NCBI GenBank assembly: GCA_031414595.1
Contig: JANNVX010000098.1
Location: 96,001 to 160,000 of the forward strand
Reading direction: 5' to 3'
DNA from: Deinococcales bacterium
GTDB lineage: Bacteria > Deinococcota > Deinococci > Deinococcales > JAAFIG01
Length of the DNA: 64,000 nt
Position numbers and translations under genes: made by a program
Notes under the pieces: model-generated
Seen by the model: the letters and a program-made list of their open reading frames with translations, nothing else
Database searches by the model: none
What the model was told of the DNA's origin: nothing
Shown here: positions 1-64,000 of the stretch, in pieces
How the letters are laid out: each line of letters starts with the position of its first letter
Position numbering within the stretch: position 1 is the first letter of the stretch

Positions 1-963
1 AATTTCGCCTAAGCGACTTGCCCCTTCGTCGGTCTCGAGCAGTTGGTGCAGAATATCCTCGCCTGTGGCTGCCCCCGCCACAATCGCTTTACCGTCCTTG
101 AAGGTCATGCGAATGCCATCTATGATTTGCCCATTAAACGATAATGGTTTGGTCGAACGCACTGAGCCGTTCACGCCATAACGGTGCGGCATGGTGAACA
201 CTTCTTCGGTGGGGATGTTCGGCACATACTGAATTGGCATGGGGTGCTTGGGGTTGCTGGTACGGCTCGAGCCTCCTTCCCACTTGTGCAGTTCGGGTAA
301 TTCAATGCTTAAGTCTGTGCCGGGGGCGTGTAACTCGAGACGGCGCAAATGTTGCTTGTTCAGGTAATCACGCCTGGCTTCAAGGTCGGTTAAATGGGTT
401 TGCCAAGCACTTACAGGGTCGGGTTGGTCAGCTCGAGAAACCATAAAAATGGCATCCCAGAGTTTTTCTAACCCCTCGGCTTGGGGGAGGTCTGGGAAAA
501 CCCGTTTAGACCAACTTGGCACGGCGTAAGCAATAATGCTCCAATTGACTTGTCCAGAACCAAATAATTCCATCACTTTTTTGCCACGCATCCCCATGGC
601 TCGCATCATCATCGAGACTCGGTTGGGGTCGGTGTGTTCAAAGGCGGCTGGGTCATTGGCAAGAATACTCAAGTAGGCATCGCCGCGCTCACAAGCGGAC
701 TCCATGGCTTGGTAACGAAGTTCTGAAACCTCGGATAAATTGGCTTCGGCACTGTGATTTAAGCGCTCTAAGGTGCTTAAATCATCCATCCAGATGGTAT
801 CCACCAAACTTGCCCCAGCTTTATAGGCAGCCCGAGCAATTAAACGCACAAGCGGCGCGGACTCGAGCGGTGCGCGAATGTACAAACGCTGATTGGGGTG
901 AATGTTATTGCCGATTCGTACTGCTAATGTCGCTAGGTTCTCGAGTTTTTGTTGGAAATCCAT
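1..963 (-). CDS. Aminopeptidase, M29 (AmpT/PepS-like) family; 3' end runs off the window
   Basis: Manual translation from ATG at 963: MDFQQKLENLATLAVRIGNNIHPNQRL...PNIPTEEVFTMP...LETDEGASRLGEI, with the typical M29 motifs NxPTEEVFT and DEGAxxLGE. Not in the ORF track because it is truncated. Confidence 0.9.
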   Translation of the reverse strand, partial: MDFQQKLENLATLAVRIGNNIHPNQRLYIRAPLESAPLVRLIARAAYKAGASLVDTIWMDDLSTLERLNHSAEANLSEVSELRYQAMESACERGDAYLSILANDPAAFEHTDPNRVSMMMRAMGMRGKKVMELFGSGQVNWSIIAYAVPSWSKRVFPDLPQAEGLEKLWDAIFMVSRADQPDPVSAWQTHLTDLEARRDYLNKQHLRRLELHAPGTDLSIELPELHKWEGGSSRTSNPKHPMPIQYVPNIPTEEVFTMPHRYGVNGSVRSTKPLSFNGQIIDGIRMTFKDGKAIVAGAATGEDILHQLLETDEGASRLGEI

Positions 964-1030
964 GAGACAGTCTAATCCCTGACAGATTGCGAAAACGTAG
1001 CCTAGGAGAAGTTCTCGAGTAGACTAAGCC

Positions 1031-1456
1031 ATGAACCCAGTACAGAGTATGCAAAATGCAATTGCAGCTGGTTGGCAAAAAGTCTTAGATGGCGTGTTGT
1101 CCTTAAATCCTGTACCAGAGGCACTTCGTCCGATACTTGGCTCGAGGTATTTTTGGTTTTTAATTTGGGTGGCGATTTTCTCGAGCCTAGGACGGAATTT
1201 ACTTGGAGAACGGTTTGGGGCGTGGCTGGGCGCAATTTTAGGCGGTTTAGTCTGGGCAAGTTTTATGCCTAAGCCAGAACTGGAATTAAGCGGTTTAGTG
1301 CTGGTGATGATTATTTTTCCTGTGCTGCTTGGTTGGTTCTCGAGAACCAAAATGGGGCAACGCACCCGAGGCGCAAAAACCTGTCCCGATTGCGCTGAGG
1401 AAATTAAAACCCAAGCCAAAGTTTGTAAGCACTGCGGTTTTCGTTTTGGTTCGTAA
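1031..1456 (+). CDS. Membrane protein with C-terminal zinc ribbon
   Basis: Three hydrophobic segments followed by KTCPDCAEEIKTQAKVCKHCG (CxxC..CxxC). Confidence 0.7.
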   Translation: MNPVQSMQNAIAAGWQKVLDGVLSLNPVPEALRPILGSRYFWFLIWVAIFSSLGRNLLGERFGAWLGAILGGLVWASFMPKPELELSGLVLVMIIFPVLLGWFSRTKMGQRTRGAKTCPDCAEEIKTQAKVCKHCGFRFGS

Positions 1457-1545
1457 ATGTTGCGTTCCACACATCACAGCCTAGCTGTTTGATGGTTGTG
1501 ATGATAACCCAAAAGCTGCATACTCGAGAACGGAGGAAAGTGTAC

Positions 1546-2088
1546 ATGCGTTTATACAATTTTTTATTTGTGTTGGTGCTGGTCTTGGTAATTATTTTTG
1601 CTTTTGCCAACATTGATTCCTTGCGTACCACAACCCAAGTTGTGATTCCTTTTTTTGGCAAACAAACCCTGCCAATGCGCTTATATGGTTGTGTCTCCCT
1701 GATTGTGTTAGCTGCTGTGTACAGCCTTCTTTGGTATCTCTCGAGTACCCGCCAAAAAGCCAAGAGCGCCGATTACCTGACCAAGCTCGAGGAAACCCGC
1801 CGCACCTTAGACGAAAAAGAAGCTGGGCGTTTTGCCCAATTGCAAGCCCAATTAGAAACAGCAACCCAAGACATTCTGGCTCGAGTTGGTGGGGTTGCGC
1901 CAGTCAAGAAAGGCTTATTCGCTGGGCTAACGCAAAAAGACGCACCCGTGCCGCTCCCCAGCACGGTGCAGAGTTTAGAAGGTTTGGTCGGACGCATCGA
2001 AAAAGTCCGCGATGAACTGGCAGCCGACATTGCCAGTTCAGAACACGAAATTCTGCAAGCCATCGAGACACTAAAAGACCGGCGTTAA
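1546..2088 (+). CDS. LapA/DUF1049-like membrane protein with coiled coil
   Basis: GGAGG RBS at 1532-1536 before ATG 1546; two TM helices with an 'FAFAN' motif, then coiled coil. Confidence 0.6.
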   Translation: MRLYNFLFVLVLVLVIIFAFANIDSLRTTTQVVIPFFGKQTLPMRLYGCVSLIVLAAVYSLLWYLSSTRQKAKSADYLTKLEETRRTLDEKEAGRFAQLQAQLETATQDILARVGGVAPVKKGLFAGLTQKDAPVPLPSTVQSLEGLVGRIEKVRDELAADIASSEHEILQAIETLKDRR

Positions 2089-3536
2089 AACACACTTCTC
2101 GAGATAAACCCTGCCATATCACTTGCCATTTGTACAAGGCTGGGCTGGTGAACGTACATCATATGTCCAGCTTGGTAATAGGTGGTCTCGAGGTTGCTTC
2201 TGAGGTGCGTGGGAATTGCTAAATGGTCAAACACATAGTCGGAAGCCCAGTACGGCGTAGCGAGGTCGTAGTAGCCATTTAAGACCATCACCCGCAGATT
2301 TGGATTCATGTTCATGGCTTTACGCAGGGTTTCGGCAACATTGACATATTTATTCTCGAATTCTTTGTATGACCACGGTTGCCAGACTTTCCAGCTTAGG
2401 ATTTCGTAGCTTGTATCGGTTTCAAAACCAAGTTCGGTGCGGACATACTGGTTAAAAGCAGCCGTATATGCGCCATAAATTGCGGCGTAACTCGGGTCGA
2501 ATTCAAAATGCTGTCCAGCAGAATCGCGGTCTGAAGCCTTAAATCTCGAGTCTAAGCGCCCAACGGTATTGCCTTGGTCACGCATCAGTTCTTTACAAAA
2601 GCGCATAATCTCGAGGCGTAAATCGGATCGCTCAACAAATTCACGGCTGACCCCTGTTAAACGCGAAACTTCACGCACCACTTTGTTCTTGGTTGTTTCA
2701 TCCAAACGATGTCCCTTAAAAAGTGCGGTTTGGTAGGTGTTTTGGGCAAAATTCTCGGCTTGGCGTAAGTGCGTCTCGAGCGATGTGCCTTTGGTTTTCC
2801 CATGATAATAGGCAGTCGCCGCAAAAGCCGGTAAGTAGAGGGTATGCGGTAAGTCGTTACCGAGTTCAAATTTGATGGTCGAAAAATCCAGCACCGTAGA
2901 AACCAGAATAATTCCGTTCAAATACATCCCGTGACGTTCTTGCAAGTAGCCTGCTAAACCACTCGCCCTTGTTGTGCCGTAGCTTTCACCAGCCAAGAAT
3001 TTAGGCGATAACCAACGGTTTTCTCTGGTGACAAACAAACGGATAAAATCACCAACCGACTCAATATCCCTACTAAAGCCATAAAAATCCTTGGCTTTTT
3101 CGCCTTTAATCACCCTCGAGAAACCCGTGCCAACTGGGTCAATAAAGACCAAATCGGAATGTTCTAAAAGCGTTTGGGCATTGTCCTCGAGACCAAACGG
3201 CGGCGGGGTGAGCGCATCAACATCACCCATGACGACTTTACGCGGACCAAACGCCCCCATGTGCAGCCAGACACTCGAGCTTCCGGGTCCGCCATTAAAA
3301 CAAAAAGTAATCGGACGGGCTTTATCTGCGCCGTTCAAGGTGTAGGCAATAAAAAACAGTTGGGCTTGGTCTTTGTCGCCCTCCGAAACCCCGTCTTTTT
3401 CGGATTCGGAACGCAAGATAATTGTTCCAGTTTTAGCGGTGTACTCGAGTTTTTTGCCGTTCAGCATCAAACTATGCTGAGTGACAACAATTTTATCCTC
3501 GAGCGGCGGGATAACCACTTTGGTTTCTTCGGGCAT
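2085..3536 (-). CDS. Serine carboxypeptidase, peptidase S10 family
   Basis: FNGGPGSSS, DPVGTGFS, GESYG (catalytic Ser), GYYDLATP and AGHMMY motifs. Confidence 0.92.
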   Translation of the reverse strand: MPEETKVVIPPLEDKIVVTQHSLMLNGKKLEYTAKTGTIILRSESEKDGVSEGDKDQAQLFFIAYTLNGADKARPITFCFNGGPGSSSVWLHMGAFGPRKVVMGDVDALTPPPFGLEDNAQTLLEHSDLVFIDPVGTGFSRVIKGEKAKDFYGFSRDIESVGDFIRLFVTRENRWLSPKFLAGESYGTTRASGLAGYLQERHGMYLNGIILVSTVLDFSTIKFELGNDLPHTLYLPAFAATAYYHGKTKGTSLETHLRQAENFAQNTYQTALFKGHRLDETTKNKVVREVSRLTGVSREFVERSDLRLEIMRFCKELMRDQGNTVGRLDSRFKASDRDSAGQHFEFDPSYAAIYGAYTAAFNQYVRTELGFETDTSYEILSWKVWQPWSYKEFENKYVNVAETLRKAMNMNPNLRVMVLNGYYDLATPYWASDYVFDHLAIPTHLRSNLETTYYQAGHMMYVHQPSLVQMASDMAGFISRSVF

Positions 3537-3547
3537 GAGGTATTCTA

Positions 3548-4003
3548 CTACGGTTTACCACGGTCACTCGAGTCAATAATAATCGTCACAGGACCGTCGT
3601 TCAGTAAACTAATTTTCATATCGGCTTGAAAAATCCCTTCTTGTACCTCGAGTTGCTGGTTACGTAGGGCTTCACAGAATTCTTTGTACAAACGCCGTCC
3701 ATCGTCGCTGCTGGCAGCTTCAATAAAACTTGGACGATTTCCGCCGCGAGTCTCGGCGTAGAGCGTAAATTGAGAGACTGCCAAAATCGCCCCACCAATC
3801 TGCTCGAGACTGAGGTTCATTTTACCAGCTTCGTCGTTGAAAACCCGTAACTTAGCGATTTTACGCGCTAAGTAATTGGCATCTTCCCTAGAATCGCTTT
3901 TTTTTACGCCAATCAGTACCAAAAAACCTTGTTCGATACTCGAGATGAGCTTATTGTCTACAGTCACACTGGCGCTAGTGACGCGCTGAATCACGGCTTT
4001 CAT
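3548..4003 (-). CDS. dtd: D-aminoacyl-tRNA deacylase
   Basis: MKAVIQRV start (ATG 4003), SQFTL and NDGPVT motifs. Confidence 0.96.
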   Translation of the reverse strand: MKAVIQRVTSASVTVDNKLISSIEQGFLVLIGVKKSDSREDANYLARKIAKLRVFNDEAGKMNLSLEQIGGAILAVSQFTLYAETRGGNRPSFIEAASSDDGRRLYKEFCEALRNQQLEVQEGIFQADMKISLLNDGPVTIIIDSSDRGKP

Positions 4004-4004
4004 C

Positions 4005-4277
4005 TCATGCCTCGGCTTTCTCGAGTGGTGAGTTAGCAAGCAGTGTACTGACGCTGCTGACCGCTTCGGTTAAGGTCTTGGCTTCTTCGGCGTTTAAGTT
4101 GCCTCGGGTTTTAATTGCCAGCATCTCGAGCAGGCGCAAACTGCGTTCGGCGGTTGTGCGGTTACGGCTGACACCATCGCGGTTCATACGGGCGGTCAGG
4201 GCATTGAATTGTCCTAAACTGGTTTCGGCGGCGGCTGTCAAACTATGGATTAAACCCAGAAAATCGGTGTTGGTCAT
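4005..4277 (-). CDS. DUF1844 family protein
   Basis: FLGLIHSL...LLEMLAIKTRGNLNAEEAK pattern; directly upstream of dtd. Confidence 0.75.
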   Translation of the reverse strand: MTNTDFLGLIHSLTAAAETSLGQFNALTARMNRDGVSRNRTTAERSLRLLEMLAIKTRGNLNAEEAKTLTEAVSSVSTLLANSPLEKAEA

Positions 4278-4367
4278 GAAAGGAGATTATCAAATTTTAC
4301 TGCCTCAAGTGCAAAACGAAACTTAAAGCACATCTTAACGTGTGCTTGCTTACGAAAATACGCTGGT

Positions 4368-5120
4368 TTGACCAGTACAGTGCTGGATGTGATTGCCCAA
4401 ACGCCTCTGAAGCCAAAATTTCAAATTCCTTTTCTGGTCTGGATGTACCTTGGGGTGATTGTTTTCTTGGGTGGATTGTACTTATTTGTCCCCAGTGTCC
4501 GTGTTTTTGTGACCCAATGCTTTGAAATTCTGGTCAGCAATGACCGTGGGCGTATCGAAACTTTTGTGGCGGGTTTTGGCTGGTGGGGACCGGTTTTAAT
4601 CATTGGCATGATGATTGCCCAAACGCTCTTAAGTGCCGTACCAATGATTCTGGTGTTGGTGGTGTCGGTACTGGCGTATGGTCCGATTTGGGGCGGCTTA
4701 CTCGGGTGGTGCGGCGCAATGATTGCAGCGATGGTTGGCTACGGGATTGCTCGAGTCTTTGGGGATACTTTACAAGATAAATTTGTGACCCCTAAAATTA
4801 GGGATATTATAGCCCGTAATGTTGCCAGATACGGCGCATTGGCAATTCTGGCGCTGCGTTTATCGCCACTGATTCCATCAGATGGTGTAAGTTTTGTGGC
4901 GGGTTTACTGCGAATGAACTTTGTGACTTTTCTGCTGGGAACGCTTAGCGGTGTTACCCCTTTGGTGATGGTCGTGGCGTATTTTGGCAGTGATTTTGAA
5001 CGCTTGACTGGTTTTGTTATTGGTGTGACGATTTTTAGTTTAACTGCTCTGATTTCATGGGTGATTTACGATGGGTTCATCAAACGCAAGAAGAATATCC
5101 AGCCTGTTGAATACAAATAA
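4368..5120 (+). CDS. TVP38/TMEM64 (VTT/DedA-like) membrane protein
   Basis: YGPIWGGLLGWCGA and LRLSPLIPSDGVSFVAGL motifs; highly hydrophobic. Confidence 0.85.
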   Translation: MTSTVLDVIAQTPLKPKFQIPFLVWMYLGVIVFLGGLYLFVPSVRVFVTQCFEILVSNDRGRIETFVAGFGWWGPVLIIGMMIAQTLLSAVPMILVLVVSVLAYGPIWGGLLGWCGAMIAAMVGYGIARVFGDTLQDKFVTPKIRDIIARNVARYGALAILALRLSPLIPSDGVSFVAGLLRMNFVTFLLGTLSGVTPLVMVVAYFGSDFERLTGFVIGVTIFSLTALISWVIYDGFIKRKKNIQPVEYK

Positions 5121-5136
5121 CGCTAAGTTTTTATGT

Positions 5137-8100: not shown

Positions 8101-8232
8101 TTCACGAAAAGATCCGCGTTCGGCACATTTTTCTTCTGGCGCAATACTCGGACCAAATTCGTACTCGTAACCAAGACCGCGCAACCACTCGAGCGAGGCT
8201 TGTTCAACAGTATTTTCGTTAAAAGAAGGCAT
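5137..8232 (-). CDS. hsdR: Type I restriction enzyme, R subunit
   Basis: [20 protein letters not shown] nuclease motif, [34 protein letters not shown]. Confidence 0.97.
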
Positions 8233-8252
8233 TAAAAAAGATTATCGCACAT

Positions 8253-8281
8253 TTGCAGCACAAGACAGATTTTGCTATAAT
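8253..8281 (+). promoter_or_regulatory. Putative sigma70 promoter pointing toward the higA 3' end, divergent from hsdR
   Basis: TTGCAG (8253-8258), 17-bp spacer, TGcTATAAT extended -10 (TATAAT at 8276-8281). Confidence 0.55.
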
Positions 8282-8320
8282 TTTTGTAGTCTCATCTACC
8301 AAGCTGTAGAAAGAGCGTTC

Positions 8321-8351
8321 GGGGTCGTCCAAAAGGGCGACCCTAGTTTTT
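8321..8351 (+). terminator. Hairpin/terminator at the higA stop
   Basis: GGGTCGTCC-AAAA-GGGCGACCC stem followed by TAGTTTTT. Confidence 0.55.
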
Positions 8352-8609
8352 AGAATTCTCGAGTTGATGTGCCTTCGTGAGCGCAAACTGACTCTCGAGA
8401 TTAAGCCAAAAGACGGCTGGCACACGCAAAGCCACCTCTAATTGCAAAGCGGTTTCTGGTGTAATGGACTTTGTACCCTGAATAATTTCGTTAATTGCTG
8501 TGGCAGGTCTGCCCATGCGCCGTGCCAAATCAGCTTGGGTCATACCAAAGCCCTCTAAAATCTCAGCAATGTACTTACCTGGAGCAATAGCCAAATCCGA
8601 GTACAACAC
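8343..8609 (-). CDS. higA: HigA-family (XRE HTH) addiction-module antidote; no cognate toxin adjacent
   Basis: GGAGGTGA RBS then GTG at 8609; AIAPGKYIAEIL..GMTQADLARRMGRP..INEII.G.KSITPETALQLE..FWLNLE is the HigA signature. Confidence 0.85.
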   Translation of the reverse strand: MLYSDLAIAPGKYIAEILEGFGMTQADLARRMGRPATAINEIIQGTKSITPETALQLEVALRVPAVFWLNLESQFALTKAHQLENSKN

Positions 8610-8613
8610 GTTA

Positions 8614-8745
8614 TCACCTCCTCGAGTCAAACCAAACGATGAACATCCAATTCCCCAGAAAGCAATTTGGGAAGCAAAAAATCTCGAGCGTAGCTTGTTC
8701 AACAGTATTTTCGTCAAAAGAAGGCATTGCAAAGATTATCGCACA
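8614..8745 (-). pseudogene. Chimeric remnant: duplicated hsdR 5' end fused at CTCGAG to a duplicated hsdS 3' end
   Basis: 8683-8745 matches 8188-8251 (hsdR start; MPSFDENTVEQATLE vs [15 protein letters not shown]). 8614-8688 matches 9506-9580 at 65/75 nt (hsdS end; RDFLLPKLLSGELDVHRLV* vs RDSLLPKLLSGELDVGNLV*). The two overlap at CTCGAG 8683-8688. Confidence 0.9.
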
Positions 8746-8754
8746 AAAGAAAAA

Positions 8755-9372: not shown

Positions 9373-9397
9373 TCTGTTATGTCCTAAATCAACTTAT

Positions 9398-9448
9398 AAA
9401 AAAAAGGCAGCCACTGGAGCTGCCCAACCGGTTGCCCGGGGAGTTGTG
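9398..9448 (-). ncRNA. Candidate ~50-nt structured RNA with intrinsic terminator upstream of the NYN gene
   Basis: Minus strand: ACAACUCC-CCGG-GCAA-CCGG-UUG-GGCAGC-UCCAGUG-GCUGCC-U8. A GNRA-capped hairpin plus a terminator hairpin, lying between the promoter and the NYN RBS. Confidence 0.55.
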
Positions 9449-9453
9449 ACAAG

Positions 9454-9482
9454 AATCTACAAGAAGCATCTTGATTTGTCAA
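9454..9482 (-). promoter_or_regulatory. Sigma70-type promoter of the RNA/NYN unit
   Basis: TTGACA (9482-9477), 17-bp spacer, TAGATT (9459-9454). Confidence 0.7.
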
Positions 9483-9518
9483 CTAACCAAGATGCTCACA
9501 AATGCTCACCTCCTCGAG

Positions 9519-10730: not shown

Positions 10731-10763
10731 GTCTTCGCCTTGTCTCGAGCAGGTAAAAAATAA

Positions 10764-13023: not shown

Positions 13024-13042
13024 GTGTAGGCATTATGACAGA

Positions 13043-15034: not shown

Positions 15035-15065
15035 ACTCATCCTGCTCGAGGTACGCTAAAACCTA

Positions 15066-15768: not shown

Positions 15769-18150
15769 TTAGAGCCGAATCTCGAGCCGTTTCCAAGTGG
15801 CAGCCATTTCTAGGCTTAAAACCCCGTTTTCCAAATGATAATTTTTTGCCCCAGCCACACTTTGTAAATTGTCTATTTGATATAAAACAATGGTCTCGAT
15901 GGTGCGCTCTAAACTCAATAAACCAGTCACATGTTTCTCGAGAACCAAGACATTATTTAGAAGCTCCCCATCTAAAAAACTGTGCCGCGAAGCTCCGTAA
16001 CCGTCGCCAGCGTCTTCAAATAATTCGCCAAACATGGTCTCGGCAGGCAACAAATGCCAAGTTAAACTTGTCCAATTGGCGGTGGTGGTGTGCTTAGCTG
16101 CTTTCGTGACCGCCAAGGCTAGACCTTCACGTAAATAAAGCGGTATTTGCTCGAGTGGCGCATCTGAAATGGTGTAACCCGCTTCGAAAACTCTGCCTGC
16201 TTTCAAATCTGTAAACTCGAGCCAACGCCCTTTTGGAAGATAGGTCAGTTTTTTGCTGGTACTCGGTGTGACCACAGGCGAAACCAACAACCCATCGCCA
16301 AACATAAATTGGTGATTGGCTCGCAAACAGTCTGGGTCGCTTGGACTGAGCATGATTAACGGACGCATGACTGGTAAGCCGTTCTGACTGGCGGTGTGCA
16401 TCAAGGTGTACAGTGTTGGTAGTAGGCGATAACGCATCTCGAGGGCAGCCCGTGCCAGACTTAAAAACGGTTCGCCAAAACGCCACGGTTCTTGCATGGT
16501 TGTGCCTTTGGCGCTGTGGTTACGCATTAAAGGATAAAACGCGCCTAGCTGATACCAACGGGCTAATAATTCGCCGTTAGCATTGGCGGCAAAGCCCGGA
16601 ATATCTGCGCCCGTAAACGCCACGCCACTTAAACCCAGCCCAAGCAACATCGGGATACTAAACGCCAAATGTTCCCAATACGAAGAATTATCACCCGTCC
16701 AAACTGCGCTGTAGCGTTGAATCCCAGCAAAACCGGCTCGGGTTAGCACAAAACCACGTTTGCCATCGCCAAAACGCTCTAAGGCATCTCGAGTGGCGGC
16801 GCACATCGTCAGCCCGTAGACATTGTGTACCTCGAGATGTCGCCGTGTGCCGTGGCGGGCATTGTACGGTAGGGTTTTGCCTTCGACCCTGCCAATCCCG
16901 TCAGATAAACTGCCATCATCGGTAAAGTTACTGGTGCGTTGCAAAGAAAAGCTGCTTGGTTCGTTCATGTCATTCCAAAAACCCGCAATTCCCGTCTCGA
17001 GCATATCTTGGTGCAAATCCGCCCACCAGTTCTGAACTTCACTTCGAGTAAAATCTGGAAAGACAGCCGGCTTGGGCCAGACTTCACCAATTAAAGTTTC
17101 GCCGCGTTCAAAACGCACCAAGTAATCGCTTGCTAGTGCCTCTTCAAAAACTTTGTAACCTGCCTCGAGTTTAATCCCGGGGTCTATAATAGGCACGAGT
17201 TTAACGCCTTCAAGCGCAGCCTCCTGACACAGTTGTTTGGGATTTGGATAACGGCTTTTATCCCATGTAAAGACCTTAAATCCGTCTTGGTAATCAATGT
17301 CGGTACTGACCACATCAAGCGGTAAATTGTGGTGCTTGTAGGCTGCAATCACTGCCCGAACATCGTTTTCGTTTTCGTAACCCCAACGCGACTGCTGTGC
17401 GCCCAATGCCCAAAGCGGTGCGAGTGGTTGCCGCCCTGTCAGGGCTGTGTAACGCTCGAGAACAGTTTTTATGCTTGAACCAGCAATCAGATAACAATCG
17501 AGTTCTGCACCACTGCTCGACCAGATTAAGCGCTCAGGGTTTGATGATGCGACATCACATTCAGTGCGCCACGATTCATCTAAGAAAAAACCCCATGCCA
17601 GACCATCTCGTAAACCAATAAAAAACGGAATACTCTGATACATCGGGTCGGTGTCTGGATGGTGCGGCACAACATCGGTATTCCAAAAGGTCAGGTGCAT
17701 GCCGCGTTTATCCAGCCCGCCAACCTTTTCGCCAAAACCAAGGTAGGCTTCGCCGCTAGGCGCACGCAACTCGAGACTGCTCGAGAATGAATCATTGGGA
17801 AAAGCCTGAGTTGCACTGCCTCGAGCCTCAAAACCACGGCACAGCAACCTTGAATCGGCATCAAAGAACTTCCATTCACCACTTGGCATGTCCAACTCAA
17901 AATGCACCCCACCAGCCTCGAGTGACAAAATTCCATCCTCGAGCATTGTATCTATTGGCAGGCTACTTTTATGGATGACGGCGAACGAATCTTTATTGGG
18001 CAAATACGGAAAAACCAGACTCGAGACCCGAGCAACCGAGGCAAAACGCGCTCGAATTACGCCTTCTAGTGGGGCGGATAACTCGAGGGTGGCGTTGTGC
18101 GACCAGAGTCTAGCAAGATGTGCCGTAAAATCATGATTTGAAAAGGACAT
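15769..18150 (-). CDS. Alpha-glucosidase, glycoside hydrolase family 31
   Basis: WNDMNEPS nucleophile motif, WTGDN, GADIPGF and RNHS; start set at ATG 18150. Confidence 0.93.
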   Translation of the reverse strand: MSFSNHDFTAHLARLWSHNATLELSAPLEGVIRARFASVARVSSLVFPYLPNKDSFAVIHKSSLPIDTMLEDGILSLEAGGVHFELDMPSGEWKFFDADSRLLCRGFEARGSATQAFPNDSFSSSLELRAPSGEAYLGFGEKVGGLDKRGMHLTFWNTDVVPHHPDTDPMYQSIPFFIGLRDGLAWGFFLDESWRTECDVASSNPERLIWSSSGAELDCYLIAGSSIKTVLERYTALTGRQPLAPLWALGAQQSRWGYENENDVRAVIAAYKHHNLPLDVVSTDIDYQDGFKVFTWDKSRYPNPKQLCQEAALEGVKLVPIIDPGIKLEAGYKVFEEALASDYLVRFERGETLIGEVWPKPAVFPDFTRSEVQNWWADLHQDMLETGIAGFWNDMNEPSSFSLQRTSNFTDDGSLSDGIGRVEGKTLPYNARHGTRRHLEVHNVYGLTMCAATRDALERFGDGKRGFVLTRAGFAGIQRYSAVWTGDNSSYWEHLAFSIPMLLGLGLSGVAFTGADIPGFAANANGELLARWYQLGAFYPLMRNHSAKGTTMQEPWRFGEPFLSLARAALEMRYRLLPTLYTLMHTASQNGLPVMRPLIMLSPSDPDCLRANHQFMFGDGLLVSPVVTPSTSKKLTYLPKGRWLEFTDLKAGRVFEAGYTISDAPLEQIPLYLREGLALAVTKAAKHTTTANWTSLTWHLLPAETMFGELFEDAGDGYGASRHSFLDGELLNNVLVLEKHVTGLLSLERTIETIVLYQIDNLQSVAGAKNYHLENGVLSLEMAATWKRLEIRL

Positions 18151-23035: not shown

Positions 23036-23599
23036 ATGATTAGTGTCACAGATTTAAGAAGCAACACCAAAGTTGAAATGGAAAATGGCTTATGGGAAAC
23101 CATTGATTATATGCACCAAAAAATTGGTCGCGGCGGCGCAAAAGTCGTGGCAAAATTTCGCAATCTCGAGACCGGCAGTATTGTAGACCGCACCTTTAGT
23201 GCCACCGAAAAACTCCAAGATATTTTTATTGAAGGTCGCACCATGCAGTTTTTATACAAAGACGGCGAAGATTTTGTGTTTATGGACATGGAAACATTTG
23301 ACCAACAAACCCTGCCAATGATTCTGGCAGGTGATTCGGCACGTTTCTTAAAGGAAAACACCGAAGTCGAAGTTCAGTTCTACAAAGAAAAACCCCTTAA
23401 AATTAGCTTGCCAAACATGATTGTGCTAAAAATCATTGAAGCCACGCCGGGCTTAAAAGGCGACACTGCCAGTGGTGGTGGCACAAAAGCCGCCAAGCTC
23501 GAGACGGGAACGACCATTCAAGTACCACTCTTTATTGAACAAGATGAATCGGTGCGCGTAGACACCCGCACTGGTGAATACCTTGGGCGCTCGAATTAA
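23036..23599 (+). CDS. efp: Translation elongation factor P
   Basis: AGGAGA RBS, MISVTDLR, HQKIGRGGA and PGLKGDTA..VPLF..VDTRTGEY. Confidence 0.97.
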   Translation: MISVTDLRSNTKVEMENGLWETIDYMHQKIGRGGAKVVAKFRNLETGSIVDRTFSATEKLQDIFIEGRTMQFLYKDGEDFVFMDMETFDQQTLPMILAGDSARFLKENTEVEVQFYKEKPLKISLPNMIVLKIIEATPGLKGDTASGGGTKAAKLETGTTIQVPLFIEQDESVRVDTRTGEYLGRSN

Positions 23600-23671
23600 A
23601 GTTAAAAGCCGAAAGGTAGGCATCAAGCCAAAAGAAAAAGCCTCCCAGTACGCATAAAATTACAATTAGTC

Positions 23672-23962
23672 AGCCCCTCTCCCGACTCGCTTAGGCTCGC
23701 CACCTGTTGGAATGCCTGTAATTCTCTTCCTGCATTTCCACGAGCTTCGCTCGAACTGTTGTAGTCCCAAATCGCTTCGCTGGGGGAGGGTCTAGGGTAT
23801 AGGTTTTGACTTTATTTGTCCTTAAAAAATTTCTCTGGAACAATGTTTTTTGGTTTTCTAGGATAAAAAACCAAAGCAAAAAGCACCCTGAACAACCCTC
23901 TCCCGCGCTTTTTGGCGGGACGAGGGTAACGAGCCTAAGCGAGTTGGGTGAGGGTTGGGGCG
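23672..23962. repeat. Two degenerate, oppositely oriented CCCTCTCCC...GGGAGGG-type palindromic repeats
   Basis: CCCCTCTCCCGACTCGCTTAGGCTCG (~23674-23699) is near-complementary to CGAGCCTAAGCGAGTTGGGTGAGGG (~23929-23954); internal CCCTCTCCCGC..GCGGGACGAGGG hairpin. Confidence 0.6.
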
Positions 23963-24072
23963 CGGTATGGGCTACTCCATTTTGAGCAATGGGTTTTTGT
24001 TGTTCTGAACTATAAACTTCCTTGAATTGATGCCTATGGGACATCCTTTTAACCTTTTTCCCCTTTGACCTT

Positions 24073-26661
24073 TTAACCTGTATTCCTTAGTCCTGCGGCA
24101 ATACCTTGGATACTCAGCAACAAAGCTCGCTCGAGTGTGGCGCGTTCGGCATTTTCGGGCGGCATCGAACGGTAACGCGCTAATAGTTCGACTTGTACCA
24201 TATGAATTGGGTCTACATAGGGATTGCGGACTTCGATACTGCGTTTTAAGCGTGGTTCGGACTCGAGAAGTTCTGTACCAATTGCATTTTTAACGTGCTG
24301 AACAGCTTTGGCGTATTCCTCGAGAATAGCATCTTTAAGGTTTGTGTGTTCAGAAAGCGCCGCGTATTGCTTAAAGATACCCATGTCGGACTTGGCAAGG
24401 CTCATTTGGGCATTGTCCAGTAAACTGCGAAAAAATGCCCATTCTCGGTAAAGTTTGGCACTCAGTCCAGATTGCTGTTGCTCGAGGGCTGCCAGACCCG
24501 TCCCTAAGCCGTACCATCCAGGGACAGTGGCTCGGTTTTGCGTCCAACTCATCACCCACGGGATAGCCCGCAGGTTATCAAGCGTTGGTTTACCGGGGCG
24601 GCGTACTGGACGGCTGGCAATTCGCAGACTGGCGATTTCGTTAATCGGTGTGGCAGCCTCAAAGAACTCGAGAAAATCTGGGTCAAAAACCAAGGCTTGG
24701 TAGGCTTGGCTCGAGGCTGTAGCGGCAGTATTGAGGGCTTCACGCCACTCGAGCGGTACAGCTTGGGGTGATTGGGCAGCCGCCACGATAATGGCATAGA
24801 GCAACTGCTCGAGGTTGCGTTTTGCCAGTTCTGGGCTGGCGTAACGGTCGGCAAGGGCTTCGCCTTGTTCGGTCAGGCGCAGTCCCGCCCCGATTGTGCC
24901 GGGCGGTTGTGCCATGATACCGCGTGCCGCAGGTCCGCCGCCGCGTCCGATGCTTGTGCCGCGACCATGAAAAAAACGGTAGGGTACACCCGCTTTGGCT
25001 AGAATTTCGGACAAGCGTTCTTGGGCTTGGTACAACGCCCAGTTCGCAGCTAAGAAACCAGCTTCTTTGTTGCTATCCGAGTAACCAAGCATCACTTCTT
25101 GCACCCTTGAGCCGAGATGAGTGCGGTACACTGGGCTGTCCAATAAGGCTTGCATCACACTTGGACAATTTTCTAAGTCATGCGGCGTTTCAAAAAGCGG
25201 CGAAACATCAAGGGCGCTAAAACCAGCTTCACGCCCAAGAATCAGCGCCTCGAGAACATCCGAAGCCGTTTCGCCGTGCGAAATCACATAGCGTCCAAAG
25301 GCTTGCGGGTTGGTTTGCAAGTGCTTGAACATCACTTGTAATGGCTCGAGAACGGCACGTAATTCTTCGGTGATGTTTGCACCAATAGGCAAGAGTGGGC
25401 GGCGTGTCTCGAGTTCGTGTTCGAGCAGCGCCATACGTTCTGGTTCGCTTAAGTTGGCGTAATTCGAGCTAACCCCACCAAGGGTTAGGAGTTCTGCCAC
25501 CGCCATCTCGAGTTTGCCAGAAAATTCCCTTATATCCAAAGCCACCAAATGTGTACCGAACATCCTAGCGCGTACAAGCACAGGTTCAACAAAAACCCGT
25601 GCCGCCCGTTCTTGCCCTGCGGCAACCAAGGAATCCCTGACCCGCTCCAATATCGGCACAGCATCCACCGATTCAGTTTTTAAGCGTAAATGCAGCGCCT
25701 CGAGTTCTGCCCGCCACGGTTCTGGGGCAGTTGAATCCAAATGGACATGAACACGTTCACGGTGCTGCGAAAGCACTGCAAAAAGCTGTTTAACATCTTC
25801 ACGCAGACGCTCACGGGCTTGGGTCTGATGATAACTCAGGGTTTCGGCAGTCACTTCGGGGGTCACAAACGGATTGCCGTCGCGGTCTCCACCAATCCAC
25901 GAATAGAACTTAAGCGGTAAATTTACTTCTGGTGTACCATCGCCAAATTCAAGGCGCATTGCCTCGAGTAAATCGGCTTGCAAGGCTGGCAGCGACTGGG
26001 CAATAAAGTTGAGGTAATGCAAACCATTAACCACTTCGTCGTGAACAGTTGGATTACGTGCCTGAAGTTCTAAAGTCCCCCACAAGACTTCAACTCGAGC
26101 CGTGATTTGCTCCAAGGCGGTCTGGCGTTCGGAATCGGACTCGAGAAAGGTCATTTCGTGCGAAATATGTTCTAAGTGCGCCCGAACAGTGCGCCGCCGC
26201 AACTCGGTTGGATGCGCCGTAAAAGTGCTGCCCAACTCGACTCGAGCCAGTAAATCGGCGACCGTTTGGGCTGTAAAACCCAATTGTTTGAGTTGCCGAA
26301 TGGCATCGTGCAAGCTCTGTTTACGCGGTTCTAAATTGGAAGCTCGGGTATCACGCCAACGCACCCGGTGACGTTCTTCTGCCAAATTAGTCAAATGAAA
26401 ATACTGAGTAAAAGCCCGAATCAGGGCTTCGGCATTCTGTACCCCAAGTTTTTTAGCAATCGCTTCGAGTTCGCTTGGGGCGCTGGTGTCGCCGCTTCTG
26501 GCTCGTTTGGTCAGTTCCCGCACCTCTTCTTCGAGGTCAAAAAATTCTTGTCCTTCTTGTTCGATTAAAACAGCACCTAAGCAGCGCCCAAGTAAATCCA
26601 CATCCCTTGAGAGTGAATCGCGTGGAGCGCCGATTGACGCAAATAATTCGGCTGATGTCAT
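24073..26661 (-). CDS. ppc: Phosphoenolpyruvate carboxylase
   Basis: FTAHPTE, SWIGGDRDGNP, QEVMLGYSDSNK, FHGRGTSIGRGG, LRAIPWV and GLRNTG. Confidence 0.97.
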   Translation of the reverse strand: MTSAELFASIGAPRDSLSRDVDLLGRCLGAVLIEQEGQEFFDLEEEVRELTKRARSGDTSAPSELEAIAKKLGVQNAEALIRAFTQYFHLTNLAEERHRVRWRDTRASNLEPRKQSLHDAIRQLKQLGFTAQTVADLLARVELGSTFTAHPTELRRRTVRAHLEHISHEMTFLESDSERQTALEQITARVEVLWGTLELQARNPTVHDEVVNGLHYLNFIAQSLPALQADLLEAMRLEFGDGTPEVNLPLKFYSWIGGDRDGNPFVTPEVTAETLSYHQTQARERLREDVKQLFAVLSQHRERVHVHLDSTAPEPWRAELEALHLRLKTESVDAVPILERVRDSLVAAGQERAARVFVEPVLVRARMFGTHLVALDIREFSGKLEMAVAELLTLGGVSSNYANLSEPERMALLEHELETRRPLLPIGANITEELRAVLEPLQVMFKHLQTNPQAFGRYVISHGETASDVLEALILGREAGFSALDVSPLFETPHDLENCPSVMQALLDSPVYRTHLGSRVQEVMLGYSDSNKEAGFLAANWALYQAQERLSEILAKAGVPYRFFHGRGTSIGRGGGPAARGIMAQPPGTIGAGLRLTEQGEALADRYASPELAKRNLEQLLYAIIVAAAQSPQAVPLEWREALNTAATASSQAYQALVFDPDFLEFFEAATPINEIASLRIASRPVRRPGKPTLDNLRAIPWVMSWTQNRATVPGWYGLGTGLAALEQQQSGLSAKLYREWAFFRSLLDNAQMSLAKSDMGIFKQYAALSEHTNLKDAILEEYAKAVQHVKNAIGTELLESEPRLKRSIEVRNPYVDPIHMVQVELLARYRSMPPENAERATLERALLLSIQGIAAGLRNTG

Positions 26662-42201: not shown

Positions 42202-43179
42202 TTACTCGAGCAGCATGTCTTGCGGAATGCTGTAGCCCATGTGGTCATAAGCAAGTGGGGTTAGTACCCGCCCCCTCGAAGTGCGCTTCATAAAACCAAG
42301 TTGAATCAGATACGGCTCGTATAAATCTTCGATTGTTAGCGCATCCTCGGAAATTGCCGTGGCAAGTGTGTCTAAACCAACCGGACCACCCGCGAACTTT
42401 AGAATCATCGTCTCGAGTAATTTTTTATCGCGGTCGGTTAAACCGACCGTATCTAAACCAAGTTTGTCTAAGGCATTTTGGGTTCTGGAAGCACTGATAT
42501 GGTACTCGCCCTCGACTTGGGCATAGTCGCGCACACGGTTCAGTAAGTTCTTGGCAATTCGCATTGTGCCTCGAGACCGCGCCCCAAGTTCAAGGGCGGC
42601 ATCTGGCGCAAGTTCTAAGCCCTGCAAAATTGCTTCTTTCTCGAGGCTCTGAGCCAATTCTTCGGGAGTGTAATACTCGAGGTGTTCGATAATCCCAAAA
42701 CGGCTTCGCATCGGTTGGGTGATTAAACCCGGGCGGGTGGTCGCGCCAATTAAGGTAAAACGCGGAATTGGCAATTGAATACTGCGTGCCGCCGGACCTT
42801 GCCCAATCACAATGTCCAATCTAAAATCTTCCATCGCAGGGTACAAGTGTTCTTCGGCAACCCGCCCTAAACGGTGAATCTCATCTATGAAAAGCACATC
42901 GCCTTCCTCGAGCGAATTGGTCAGAATTGCCGCCAAATCACCGGGTTTTTCTATTGCCGGACCCGAAGTCGGACGAATCCCAACCCCCATTTCGTAGGCA
43001 ATAATGTGTGCCAAGGTGGTCTTACCCAGTCCGGGCGGACCAAACACCAACACATGGTCAAGTGCTTGATTGCGCCCTTTAGCGGCTTGGATATAGACCC
43101 CAAGTTTTTGTTTAAGTTTATCCTGACCAACATAATCTTTAAGGGTCTTCGGACGATTTGCACCAGCAGCTTGAGTCAT
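42202..43179 (-). CDS. ruvB: Holliday junction branch migration helicase RuvB
   Basis: [27 protein letters not shown] and GGPVG. Confidence 0.97.
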
Positions 43180-43308
43180 GGGATTCCTAGGAGAGAGGCG
43201 AAAGGCAAAAGGCAAAAGGTTTTAAGTTCGCCCTGTTAAGCGATGATTCTATTCTATTCGGTTTTGGGCGTAATTTCCAGCACCAAATTGGGCGTAATTT
43301 CTCGGCAC

Positions 43309-43341
43309 TAAAAAAGCCGAAAGGGTTGAACCTTTTCGGCT
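43309..43341 (-). terminator. rpmF terminator
   Basis: AGCCGAAAAGG-TTCAA-CCCTTTCGGCT followed by a T tract on the minus strand. Confidence 0.8.
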
Positions 43342-43358
43342 ATACGGGACGAATTACT

Positions 43359-43550
43359 TTAGGCTGCGGCTATCGCTAAAACCTGACGACCATCGTAGTA
43401 ACCGCATTCAGCACAAACTACGTGCTGTGGTTTCTTAGAGCCACAATTCTTGCAAGTGGTCAAATTAGGGGCAACCAAGGCATGGTGCGAACGACGCATA
43501 TCGCGCTTGGACTTGCTGGTCTTCTTTTTTGGAACGGGGTGCTTTGCCAT
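43359..43550 (-). CDS. rpmF: 50S ribosomal protein L32
   Basis: [42 protein letters not shown]. Confidence 0.97.
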
Positions 43551-43721
43551 TTTTATTTCCTCCGAGCGTGTGGGATAAGCCCAGTCAGCCACTTTTTTTA
43601 CTGTTGTTAGCGTGAGTAGCCTCACGGCAGCCCAAGGAGTATAGCAAAAGCTAAGCAGATTGCAAGGGGGCAAAAGGATAGCACGAGGTGTCTCTCTCAT
43701 TTTTCACGGTAGACTGCAAGC

Positions 43722-44750
43722 GTGTTAAAGGGTTTTTTTGATGCGGTTTTTAACTTAACCGACCCTCGTCCAAATTATATTGGAGAGCGTTGTTTGCTCG
43801 AGAAGAACGCCGTCGGTGGCTGCGATAAGTGTATGCAGGCATGTCCGCACGAAGCAATTTCTTTGGGTTTTAAGCCAGAAATCTCGGAAAGCTGCACTGG
43901 TTGTGGTTTGTGTGTCCAAGTTTGCCCAAGCGCTGCCCTCGAGTACGATATTCTTAAACCTTTGGGGCAATTAAAAGCCCAAGGCACAACCCATGCCAGA
44001 GCTACCGAGTCCGAGCGCCTACCAAGCAGCCTAAAGTGCAGCAAAGTAGCGGGCGATTCTGCGACCATCGAATGCCTTGGGCGGGTCACACCAGCCATGA
44101 TTCTGGCTTCGAGTGCATGGGGGCAAGAACTAACCTTGCTACGCTCAGACTGTGCCACTTGCAAACTGGGTGGGGAGACCGTACCAGAATCTTTAGAAAA
44201 TGTGATTGCCATAGCCCGTGAGTACAAAAAGCACCTCGAGCAACCCGAAATTGCAGTGCAGGTGATAGTTGGCACTGCCGAATCTAGCCCTCGAGCCGAT
44301 GTTGCCGCTTCGGTCTCGAGACGCGGCGCATTGCAAGCCTTGGGACGCAACACTCGAGACAGCACCGCACGGCTAATTCCCGAGAAACTGATTCCGGGCG
44401 TGGATACCAAGATAGATGCACCGCGTATCCCCGAAGAATGGGCTTGGCGCAAAAAAGCCTTGCGTCCGATTCCCGAACCCGAAGCGCTGCAATACTGGGT
44501 GATTCCAAGTATCAATGAGGATTGTATTTTTTGTCCAGTCTGCCAGAATGTCTGCCCCACCGAAGCGATTATCAGAAACCGTGAAATAGACGGCACATGG
44601 AAAATCACCCTCGAGACTGCCGCTTGTACGGGCTGTAATGCCTGTGTTCTAAGCTGCCCACCAAGTGCCATGAAACTCGAGCCAGAGATACTGTTCTCGC
44701 AACTCGAGCAGGTTTTGTTATTGCGCGAAGGCGATGGGTATACTTCTTGA
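43722..44750 (+). CDS. 4Fe-4S dicluster / polyferredoxin protein
   Basis: Multiple CxxCxxCxxxCP motifs at both termini. Confidence 0.88.
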   Translation: MLKGFFDAVFNLTDPRPNYIGERCLLEKNAVGGCDKCMQACPHEAISLGFKPEISESCTGCGLCVQVCPSAALEYDILKPLGQLKAQGTTHARATESERLPSSLKCSKVAGDSATIECLGRVTPAMILASSAWGQELTLLRSDCATCKLGGETVPESLENVIAIAREYKKHLEQPEIAVQVIVGTAESSPRADVAASVSRRGALQALGRNTRDSTARLIPEKLIPGVDTKIDAPRIPEEWAWRKKALRPIPEPEALQYWVIPSINEDCIFCPVCQNVCPTEAIIRNREIDGTWKITLETAACTGCNACVLSCPPSAMKLEPEILFSQLEQVLLLREGDGYTS

Positions 44751-62829: not shown

Positions 62830-63462
62830 ATGAAACGATACTTGGTATTGATTTTGGCATTGGTTTTGGTTGGTTGTAATTTACCCGACCCACAAGAAGC
62901 GGCTCGACTGAAAACCGAGAATGAAACACTGCAAGCTCAGGTGACGACGCTGACTTCGGAGCGCGACGCGGCTGTCTTAGAGCGTGATGATTTGCGTGGG
63001 CGTTTAGAAAAAATTAAAACTGCTCTGGAAAATTTGCCAGCCATCTCAAGCATGACTGCACCAAGCCCTGCACCAACCGTACCGGAAACGACTGTGCCAA
63101 GCGTTCCAGAAACCACGACACCAGCCGCCCCAGAAACCACTGCACCAAACACTCCCGAAACTGTTCCAGAGACCACGCCAGACTCGAGTACCCCCGCCTT
63201 ACCGCCTGTCAGTGCTGGAACAGATGCCAGTCTGCTCGAAAAATTACAAGCCTATACCAATGAAGTCTTGACGGCAGCCCAGAATTTTAAGGCGCAAACC
63301 CGCCAAGAAGCGCCCTTAAATTGTACCAATGGCTATGCGGCTGGTGCATACAATGTACAGGACAGCTTAGACTTAAAAGAATGCAGTATTGTCACCGAAG
63401 CCAATGGCGATTACCGTGTTACGGCTCGAGATGCGGCGGGCAATAGCGTTAGCGTTCCCTGA
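62830..63462 (+). CDS. Lipoprotein with coiled coil, Pro/Thr-rich linker and small C-terminal domain
   Basis: Lipobox LVGC; PETT repeats; two C-terminal Cys. Confidence 0.75.
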   Translation: MKRYLVLILALVLVGCNLPDPQEAARLKTENETLQAQVTTLTSERDAAVLERDDLRGRLEKIKTALENLPAISSMTAPSPAPTVPETTVPSVPETTTPAAPETTAPNTPETVPETTPDSSTPALPPVSAGTDASLLEKLQAYTNEVLTAAQNFKAQTRQEAPLNCTNGYAAGAYNVQDSLDLKECSIVTEANGDYRVTARDAAGNSVSVP

Positions 63463-63482
63463 TGAACTAAAATCCGTGAATC

Positions 63483-63594
63483 GTTAGGCGAGGCTTCTTG
63501 ACCATAAACGCGCACCTGACGGGCATGGTCGCATGCCTCGCCCCTACGACAAAAATCTCGTGCTAAACCGTAGGGGTTAGGTATGCCTAACCCC
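63483..63594. repeat. Cluster of GTAG-type REP-like palindromes
   Basis: GCATGCCTCGCCCCTAC (63531-63547) with an upstream AGGCGAGGC partner, and GTAGGGGTTAGGTATGCCTAACCCC (63570-63594). Confidence 0.65.
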
Positions 63595-63746
63595 TTAAAG
63601 GTCAATGGTGATCCATTCTCAAATCGGGATGTTATTTCTGGACGATTCCTAAGAATATCCAAATACATTTGTTGTCCCCAAGGTAGTACCAAATCTACCC
63701 CTCGAGAATACCCTATGCTCGAGGGATGAATCATGATGCCCAAAAT

Positions 63747-64000
63747 ATGAATCATTTACCTGCCTCAAAACAATCATTTGAGCTTTTCAAAGCCTTTGCC
63801 CTGATTGGGGCAACCAACTTTGGCGGTGGTGGCAGCGCCCATGTTCAGCACCACATGGTCGAACGCCTTAAATGGCTAAGCATGGACGAATACCTCGAGT
63901 GTTACAGCATGGTTCAAACCCTGCCGGGTCCAGTTTTTTCTAATCTTTGTACCCATGTCGGCGCTCGTTTAGCGGGCTGGCGTGGCGGAATTCTAGCCAC
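63747..64000 (+). CDS. chrA: Chromate transporter (ChrA family), 5' part
   Basis: Manual translation: LFKAFALIGATNFGGG...VERLKWLS..EY...Q.LPGP...GWRGG. An alternative in-frame ATG lies at 63726. Confidence 0.85.
   Translation, partial: MNHLPASKQSFELFKAFALIGATNFGGGGSAHVQHHMVERLKWLSMDEYLECYSMVQTLPGPVFSNLCTHVGARLAGWRGGILA

Follow-up and report, generated by a model that had tools for sequence, protein, structure and literature searches.

Why does one six-base palindrome, CTCGAG, recur throughout a stretch of Deinococcales DNA in numbers far beyond chance? The question is raised by 64,000 nucleotides of contig JANNVX010000098.1 (positions 96,001 to 160,000; NCBI GenBank assembly GCA_031414595.1), hereafter called the window (G000:C98:96001-160000), in which an earlier note had described CTCGAG as behaving like HIP1, the highly iterated palindrome (HIP) of cyanobacteria. 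The observation itself is confirmed. CTCGAG is a lineage-wide HIP-like element, an exact six-base site that is favoured at the DNA level, independently of genes, and whose density is kept at a set level by a force that acts on precisely this hexamer.

The genome that contains the window (G000) comprises 4.49 Mb in 120 contigs, with a GC content of 47.2%. Genes were called crudely, as open reading frames (ORFs) of at least 100 residues chosen greedily and without overlap, which gave 3,832 genes genome-wide. Family f1, which is uncultured, consists of G000 and 18 other genomes from five genera, and it was compared with 12 outgroup genomes of the order and with a phylum sample of 251 genomes; densities per kb of the family genomes rest on rounded genome sizes. 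The rpoB gene of G000 is 80-100% identical to records named ‘MAG: Deinococcales bacterium’ and 66-75% identical to those of Deinococcus, Truepera, Meiothermus and Thermus, which bears out the assignment to Deinococcota made in the earlier note.

Abundance of CTCGAG in the window and in the genome

The window contains 346 copies of CTCGAG (5.4 per kb), distributed along its entire length (1..64000) in housekeeping genes, in a type I restriction-modification (R-M) locus and in intergenic DNA. One hundred dinucleotide-preserving shuffles of the window gave a mean of 7.71 copies (standard deviation 2.48, maximum 14), and none reached 346; the excess is 45-fold. The coordinate list reproduces the counts of the earlier note exactly, with 14 sites starting in positions 1-2000 and 15 in 2001-4100 (34..4025). 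Genome-wide, 23,235 copies were counted (5.18 per kb, or about one per 190 bp), while 972 are expected from base composition, an observed/expected ratio (O/E) of 23.9. HIPs are over-represented about 15-fold or more, and CTCGAG lies within this range. Ranked by the number of places, it is the most frequent hexamer of the genome, followed by words that overlap it (ACTCGA/TCGAGT, 14,786 places); the most frequent pair unrelated to it is CAAAAA/TTTTTG, with 11,129 places.

The motif is exactly six bases long, as the information at flanking positions does not exceed 0.026 bit. Palindromy also stops at six bases. An extended palindrome or hairpin was rejected as an explanation, since the complementarity of the flanks is at or below chance, and a mobile micro-element was rejected because the flanks are not conserved. 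A gene-level signal was likewise discarded. The metagene profile of CTCGAG density is level across gene starts and ends, except for a small rise to 7 per kb around stop codons, where doublets of the site are located in terminator-like hairpins.

A library, assembly or binning artefact might be suspected in a metagenome-assembled genome of 120 contigs, but no positive support for it was found. It is excluded because all 18 other genomes of the family, one of them a single contig, have the same density and because contigs (Logan) from four runs of a different study cover window positions 1-20000 with related sequence. Named rpoB records from several projects also carry CTCGAG, and sites recur at orthologous codon positions. 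The probability left to an artefact is negligible.

Coding frames, codon choice and protein sequence

In the window, 317 sites fall within 58,848 coding bases and 29 within 5,152 non-coding bases, and the counts for frames 0, 1 and 2 are 187, 50 and 74. The genome as a whole shows nearly equal densities in coding (5.15 per kb) and non-coding DNA (5.37 per kb). Among the 20,326 coding sites, frame 0 is the commonest (12,065), followed by frame 2 (4,280) and frame 1 (3,981). Non-coding DNA contains 2,900 copies, while 99, 75 and 196 are expected under order-0, order-1 and order-2 models, respectively.

Codon usage was evaluated at several levels. Shuffling synonymous codons within genes retains 1,937-2,017 of the 20,326 coding sites, and permuting codons retains 900-980. 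A codon-pair null (first-order codon Markov, dicodon-preserving), in which the signal is already included, predicts 2,292 and 2,013 sites in frames 1 and 2, compared with the 3,981 and 4,280 observed. The enrichment persists under the Markov and codon-shuffle nulls and, in frames 1 and 2, under the dicodon null, and the claim of the earlier note that no single codon pair can explain it holds. Codon choice depends sharply on context. For instance, leucine is encoded by CTC in 15.5% of cases overall, but in 85.5% of cases before GAG and in about 16% before GAA, GAT or GAC. Arginine is encoded by CGA in 82% of cases between nCT and Gnn (13-18% in other contexts), and serine by TCG in 81% of cases between nnC and AGn (9-14% in other contexts). 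Of the opportunities for CTCGAG that the protein sequence permits, 60%, 47% and 37% are filled in the three frames. The effect acts at the level of the motif, not of the codon.

An origin in codon-pair or amino-acid preferences (CTC-GAG for Leu-Glu) inherited from GC-rich ancestors, with the enrichment as a side effect, would agree with the predominance of frame 0 and with the 1-3 sites per kb, largely in frame 0, found in GC-rich relatives. This account is refuted by the density in non-coding DNA, by the 8,261 sites in frames 1 and 2, by the minor use of CTC except before GAG and by the loss of 90% of the sites upon synonymous shuffling, and we regard it as extremely improbable. As in HIPs, the sites occur within and between genes and have no peptide or codon cause. 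The motif has instead bent the protein sequences, since no dipeptide exceeds Leu-Glu in over-representation (O/E 2.23; Glu-Leu is at 0.98).

Spacing of the sites

Distances between neighbouring sites were compared with a null that fills an equal share of the synonymous opportunities at random; the comparison addresses short range only, in keeping with an assembly of 120 contigs. Gaps shorter than 20 bp are strongly depleted (728 versus 1,814 in the null, z -29), gaps of 50-300 bp are in excess (15,183 versus 13,360, z +19.5), and gaps of 400-1000 bp are again depleted (2,255 versus 2,624, z -11). The coefficient of variation of the gaps is 0.99, versus 1.05 in the null. Opportunities whose nearest CTCGAG lies at 7-12 bp are used with a probability of 0.27, and this value increases to 0.66-0.69 where the nearest site is 76-300 bp away; all frames follow a similar trend. 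The even spacing and the lower use of opportunities near existing sites indicate that the density behaves as if it were regulated, at the same level whether the DNA is under constraint or not. Pairs of sites closer together than about 50-75 bp are disfavoured. The window contains an example of the rare pair type, with two sites 10 bp apart at 17770 and 17780 (17770..17785), and its longest stretch free of CTCGAG measures 890 bp between successive sites (42907..43802).

Conservation and turnover among congeners

Between 23 and 37 kb of the window were aligned to five congeners with DNA identities of 75-95%. The first congener retains 168 of 190 CTCGAG sites of G000 (other hexamers, 0.77), the second 146 of 173 (0.62), the third 107 of 131 (0.27), the fourth 102 of 154 (0.28) and the fifth 74 of 131 (0.21). 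Retention therefore ranges from 0.56 to 0.88 for CTCGAG and from 0.21 to 0.77 for other hexamers, and the conservation above background at orthologous positions that the earlier note proposed to look for is found in every congener. CTCGAG is kept at 2-3 times the rate of other hexamers, yet the sites turn over, and each relative also carries 20-88 sites that have no counterpart in G000.

At places where one genome alone has the site, differences at two or more bases are more frequent than for control hexamers (84% versus 51% in the third congener), and one-off states therefore look short-lived. Typical counterparts are TTAGAA or CTCTAA, in line with synonymous Leu-Glu recoding. CTCGAG arises mostly by such recoding (for example, TTA-GAA or CTG-GAA to CTC-GAG) and sometimes by an amino-acid change; it is then retained far better than other hexamers and accumulates to about one site per 190 bp. 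Among the words one base away from CTCGAG, those reached by transitions have O/E values of 1.07-1.23 genome-wide, and those reached by transversions 0.17-0.69; none of these neighbours stands out by itself. A comparison of reads with the window gave 1,082 variant places; among the 40 listed, none lies inside CTCGAG and about 1.3 would be expected, numbers too small to judge constraint.

Distribution in the family and the phylum

All 18 other genomes of family f1, including the single-contig genome G013, contain 4.3-6.8 sites per kb, and the five f1 genomes in the phylum sample contain 5.2-6.5 per kb. The 12 outgroup genomes of the order range from 0.03 to 2.9 per kb. Elsewhere in the phylum the site is avoided in the 92 genomes of genus g7 (about 0.01-0.3 per kb) and reaches about 1.4-3.5 per kb in genera g13-g15. 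The sharpest contrast lies within a single genus (g36 of family f3), where G253 has about 7.0 sites per kb and G197 about 0.3, a more than 20-fold difference. G196 has about 3.6 per kb. The comparison across Deinococcota that the earlier note had called for thus reveals a trait of the whole family (18/18) that is patchy beyond it and ranges from avoided to hyper-abundant.

Relationships were examined in a quick rpoB tree, in which the placement of G082 and L035 was ignored, as both lie on very long branches and are suspected to be mis-extracted. G253, L023 and G197 form one unresolved group (support 99) within the f3 clade, apart from f1, and the rpoB locus of L023 is rich in CTCGAG. G196 is placed beside CTCGAG-poor Deinococcus. 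Two separate lineages of Deinococcaceae (G253/L023 and G196) are also rich in the site. Because rich and poor lineages are intermixed (G253 versus G197, G196, f1), CTCGAG-richness arose or was lost several times. Where rpoB of G253 has CTCGAG, that of G197 has TTGGAA, CTGGAA, CTCGAA or CTGGAG, and 6 of the 10 G253 sites coincide in position with sites of G000.

In samples of 100 kb, the excess over synonymous shuffles is 5.4-fold in G013 and 6.8-fold in G011, both of family f1. It is 1.9-fold in G025 (family f4) and 1.8-fold in G019 (family f2), which show a weaker form of the same context-dependent codon use.

Avoidance of other palindromes

The background against which CTCGAG stands out is the near-absence of other palindromes. 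In G000, 58 of the 64 six-base palindromes are under-represented, 34 of them with an O/E of 0.10 or less. For instance, GGGCCC is absent, and TGCGCA, CGATCG and GAGCTC are present in 2, 3 and 6 copies, respectively. Four-base palindromes are affected too, as GGCC occurs 152 times against 13,951 expected and GATC has an O/E of 0.14. Apart from CTCGAG, avoidance is escaped by the AT-rich words CAATTG, AAATTT, TTGCAA, AGCGCT and GAATTC. The avoidance of GGCC is not family-wide, as G013 has 339 copies in 100 kb. The genomes of f1 are rich in methyltransferases, which fits a background of palindrome avoidance. The non-palindromic words ATCGAC and GTCGAT are also very rare, with 63 and 59 copies in G000 compared with 500-1,400 for other words of the form NTCGAN; an asymmetric restriction system may target them.

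Acquired DNA, CRISPR arrays and repeats

Newly acquired DNA starts out poor in CTCGAG. The poorest regions of G000 are a low-GC polysaccharide/O-antigen cluster in which several genes have no site, a GTPase/SIR2 defence island, a Tn7-like element and a copper/redox island. The defence island (G000:C14:17001-27000) contains Double-GTPase 1 and 2, GASH and SIR2-like genes.

The genome has three CRISPR arrays (G000:C11:14152-16125, C82:70753-71701 and C101:43-1638), all of which contain CTCGAG in their repeats. The three repeats have one half in common, which in one of them is read in the opposite sense. One repeat also carries CTGCAG, a palindrome with just 51 copies in the genome. The 58 spacers contain 9 CTCGAG in 2,002 positions and no GGCC. 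Eight of the nine sites belong to the C11 array, which has 26 spacers, and this richness suggests that some of the DNA targeted by CRISPR shares the signature of the host; the 32 spacers of the other two arrays have a single site. Two spacers searched for exact protospacers gave none, and the spacers did not match G000 itself. No HK97-type capsid gene was found in five genomes. Among the matches listed in a search for viral contigs with three close CTCGAG, 80 loci were counted, mostly GC-rich phage DNA.

Within the window, one copy of a dispersed repeat, intergenic and about 420 bp long (23617-24040), lies in a gap of 632 bp between sites (23498..24135), and this copy lacks CTCGAG. The repeat matches 32 BLAST pieces on about 20 contigs of G000, is present in many copies in congeners and may be an element similar to miniature inverted-repeat transposable elements. 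The type I R-M locus of the window (5137-13023) comprises HsdR (5137-8232) and HsdM (11449-13023), and inside it lie a HigA-like antitoxin gene (8343-8732) and a gene similar to REP-associated tyrosine transposases (10764-11468). Its CTCGAG density is ordinary, with 41 sites in 7.9 kb.

Is CTCGAG an enzyme-read mark?

The reading that we favour, tentatively and with a little less than even confidence, is that CTCGAG is a lineage-wide palindrome read by an enzyme, most likely adenine-methylated, and that the mark serves genome maintenance. Under this scheme, a cellular enzyme of the R-M type, probably an adenine methyltransferase, would read the site. The mark, at a density like that of Dam sites, could allow strand or self-DNA discrimination in repair, recombination or uptake, and selection for this function, or a repair bias arising from it, would keep the density at its set level. 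The GATC sites of Escherichia coli, methylated by Dam, occur about once per 240 bp, which is roughly the frequency expected by chance. The density of CTCGAG (about one per 190 bp) is similar and would suit a strand mark based on hemimethylation. Unlike GATC, the six-base CTCGAG needed 24-fold enrichment to reach this density, and GATC itself is among the avoided words of G000.

That CTCGAG would be enzyme-read, and most likely adenine-methylated, is suggested by its form, an exact, symmetric six-base site without flanking information, and by the orphan CTCGm6AG enzymes present in three relatives from the Thermaceae. Blow 2016 lists M.Mhy14884I, M.Mch9957IV and M.Mru1279II as CTCGm6AG enzymes for which no partner nuclease is given, and supplementary file 4 of that work reports methylation at 94.6% of the sites in Marinithermus hydrothermalis, 94.1% in Meiothermus chliarophilus and 99.5% in M. 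ruber, but not in M. silvanus. The same strains methylate AATT and TTAA (Blow 2016), which are both among the few palindromes that G000 does not avoid. A preprint on hot-spring epigenomes describes CTCGAG methylation as common to the hosts and phages of one network group. The Thermaceae system thus has the same recognition sequence as the element described here and belongs to the same phylum, Deinococcota, and G025 and G019 show the weaker CTCGAG excess noted above. The XhoI-family nuclease (PF04555), the only CTCGAG-cutting family searched, was found in none of the 19 f1 genomes and in 1 of the 12 outgroup genomes, and its absence from f1 is counted in favour of a methylated mark. A restriction target is expected to be avoided, whereas CTCGAG is 24-fold enriched in G000.

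Several results weigh against this reading. The earlier note had advised a search for a CTCGAG or TCGA methyltransferase or nickase. Searches of 31 or 5 genomes with six Pfam methyltransferase families (PF00145, PF01555, PF02086, PF02384, PF07669 and PF12950) found no methyltransferase common to the whole family. Proteins with a PF01555 or TaqI_C domain are missing from the single-contig genome G013. Seven methyltransferase loci of G013, four of G011 and four of G010 were compared with the G000 proteome by BLAST; the seven G013 ORFs are at most 39% identical to any G000 protein, while the flanking housekeeping genes are 65-89% identical. A TaqI-like enzyme of G000 (G000:C4:28798-30789), with an N-terminal helix-turn-helix, an Eco57I and a TaqI_C domain according to Pfam, is present only in G000, G001 and G003, that is, in 3 of 19 f1 genomes, and a 1,108-aa enzyme (G000:C64) is patchy as well (8/18 genomes). 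The Eco57I + TaqI_C enzyme of the outgroup genome G025 has no close homologue or orthologue in five f1 genomes, G000 included. That no enzyme conserved across f1 was found weakens the case for an adenine methyltransferase. The mismatch endonuclease Vsr was found in none of five genomes, and no single depleted transition among the one-off neighbours points to a one-mismatch repair enzyme. CTCGAG does not cluster at dnaA, where the flanks have 0-4 sites per 500 bp, an ordinary number; this differs from an orphan CTCGAG enzyme of Nocardia, whose sites are clustered at the origin (Blow 2016). Hyper-abundance does not follow from methylation as such. Orphan methylation alone does not produce it, as the E. 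coli GATC site is not enriched.

Besides G000, 5 of the remaining 18 f1 genomes have proteins with a TaqI_C domain. All 30 genomes of g9 and both genomes of g18 encode a methyltransferase (about 400-460 aa, with Eco57I and TaqI_C domains) that shares 51-58% identity with the enzyme of G025 and looks like a core, orphan-like enzyme of g9. In the rich/poor pair, methyltransferase genes are more numerous in G253 than in G197 (4 versus 0 for PF07669, 2 versus 0 for PF01555). The large enzymes of G253 and of G196, which has only two, are PglX-like and unrelated to each other.

Comparison with HIP1

Elhai 2015 describes, in addition to HIP1, three alternate HIPs (GGCGCC, rCCGGy and GCsGC), each with a cognate methyltransferase, and CTCGAG does not appear in the text of that article. 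No earlier description of CTCGAG hyper-abundance was found in a literature search, and there is none in the passages of Blow 2016 that deal with the motif. Like HIPs, CTCGAG is a short GC-containing palindrome that is at least 15-fold over-represented, in all frames and in non-coding DNA, conserved, and present throughout a lineage with exceptions. It also lies inside CRISPR repeats, as does the CGATCG of HIP1 in the CRISPR1 repeat of Synechocystis (PMC6604393), and its function is open to the same dispute. The differences are equally clear. Compared with HIP1 (GCGATCGC), the motif belongs to another phylum, has another sequence and is a 6-mer instead of an 8-mer, and the CGATCG core is one of the rarest words of G000, with 3 copies in 4.49 Mb. 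Its density is about 5 per kb, while that of HIPs is about 1 per kb (Elhai 2015). HIP1 is accompanied by the conserved orphan methyltransferases DmtA and DmtC, whereas none was found conserved in f1, and the background of CTCGAG is an extreme avoidance of nearly all other six-base palindromes.

The HIP1-like interpretation of the earlier note is therefore upheld for abundance, for occurrence in all frames and in intergenic DNA, for conservation, for its lineage-wide nature and for the hairpins after genes. The methyltransferase-coupled cause that it suggested is weakened, as no family-wide methyltransferase, no XhoI-family nuclease (19 f1 genomes) and no Vsr (five genomes) was found. Density homeostasis, the change of the proteome, the amelioration of foreign DNA, the patchy distribution in the phylum and the link to orphan CTCGm6AG methylation in Thermaceae go beyond that note.

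Alternative explanations

Known uptake sequences offer another model, in which CTCGAG would be a specificity signal for uptake or recombination without any methylation, preferred by a competence or recombination protein, and would be spread by biased uptake and homologous recombination. The uptake signal sequences (USS) of Pasteurellaceae and the DNA uptake sequences (DUS) of Neisseriaceae are abundant family-wide, evenly spread, located in genes with an effect on peptides and sparse in foreign DNA; an uptake bias has been shown, and the DUS receptor is known. CTCGAG resembles them in being family-wide and evenly spread in all frames, in altering the proteome and in being sparse in acquired islands, and the failure to find a conserved methyltransferase also speaks for this model. 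Sites confined to one genome often face counterparts with changes at several bases, the pattern expected from allele replacement, and the C11 array, with its 8 sites in 26 spacers, targets DNA of the host's own signature. Against the model stand the other two arrays, whose 32 spacers contain 1 site, and the form of the motif. USS and DUS comprise 9-12 bases, are asymmetric and occur about once per kb, whereas CTCGAG is an exact 6-bp palindrome without flanking preference that carries 12 bits at 5 sites per kb, and uptake in Thermus is regarded as blind to sequence. Uptake has been proposed for HIP1 as well (Rodriguez-Cruz 2026). On balance, we consider such a signal unlikely. Less probable still is that CTCGAG became abundant without any function, through biased mismatch repair or very-short-patch repair near a recognition site. 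This is the repair ratchet that Elhai 2015 describes in section 3.4; it saturates, near 1 site per kb, when no base is left out of reach of a site. The equal density of coding and non-coding DNA and the short-range interference between sites fit saturation, and one-off states look transient, with multi-base differences beyond those of controls. The ratchet requires a cognate methyltransferase, however, and none was found conserved in f1, nor was Vsr found in the five genomes searched; a by-product that doubles Leu-Glu in proteins would also be costly. Xu 2018 infers from the conservation of HIP1 that it is under selection and not replenished by repair, and CTCGAG shows the same kind of conservation.

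A regularly spaced anchor for an abundant nucleoid or chromosome-organising protein would account for the even spacing, with its preferred distances of 50-300 bp, and for a density that is flat and blind to genes. Such a role is favoured for HIP1 by Xu 2018, which gives a chromosomal periodicity of 10-90 kb for that palindrome. Proteins of this kind rarely read an exact 6-mer without flanking preference, and no candidate was found; we judge this explanation improbable. The methylated mark thus remains the reading that we prefer, and the intermixed distribution of rich and poor lineages leads to a further proposal, which we consider rather unlikely. In it, CTCGAG would be a switchable self-mark that has arisen at least three times in Deinococcales (f1, G253/L023 and G196), while close relatives keep the site rare; it would work without any conserved methyltransferase, through a reader that serves uptake, recombination or the guidance of repair.

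Significance

Debate on the role of HIP1 has lasted about thirty years, in part for want of contrasts, since the palindrome is present in nearly all cyanobacteria. CTCGAG presents the case in another phylum, at a five-fold higher density than HIP1, with measurably changed proteins and with close relatives at the opposite extreme. Together with Meiothermus and Marinithermus, cultivable cousins with an active orphan CTCGAG methyltransferase, these features make ideas on methylation-guided repair, uptake and the nucleoid directly testable. In practical terms, CTCGAG is a strong signature for the binning and host assignment of these Deinococcales of the cryosphere and of the mobile DNA that they carry, and enzymes of the XhoI type cannot serve as rare cutters in organisms rich in the motif. 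If the proposal of a switchable self-mark is true, these bacteria would possess a mark strong enough to double the Leu-Glu content of their proteins and to maintain a density of one site per 190 bp. No HIP-like system would have preceded it outside cyanobacteria, and its natural on/off contrasts could expose the long-sought mechanism.

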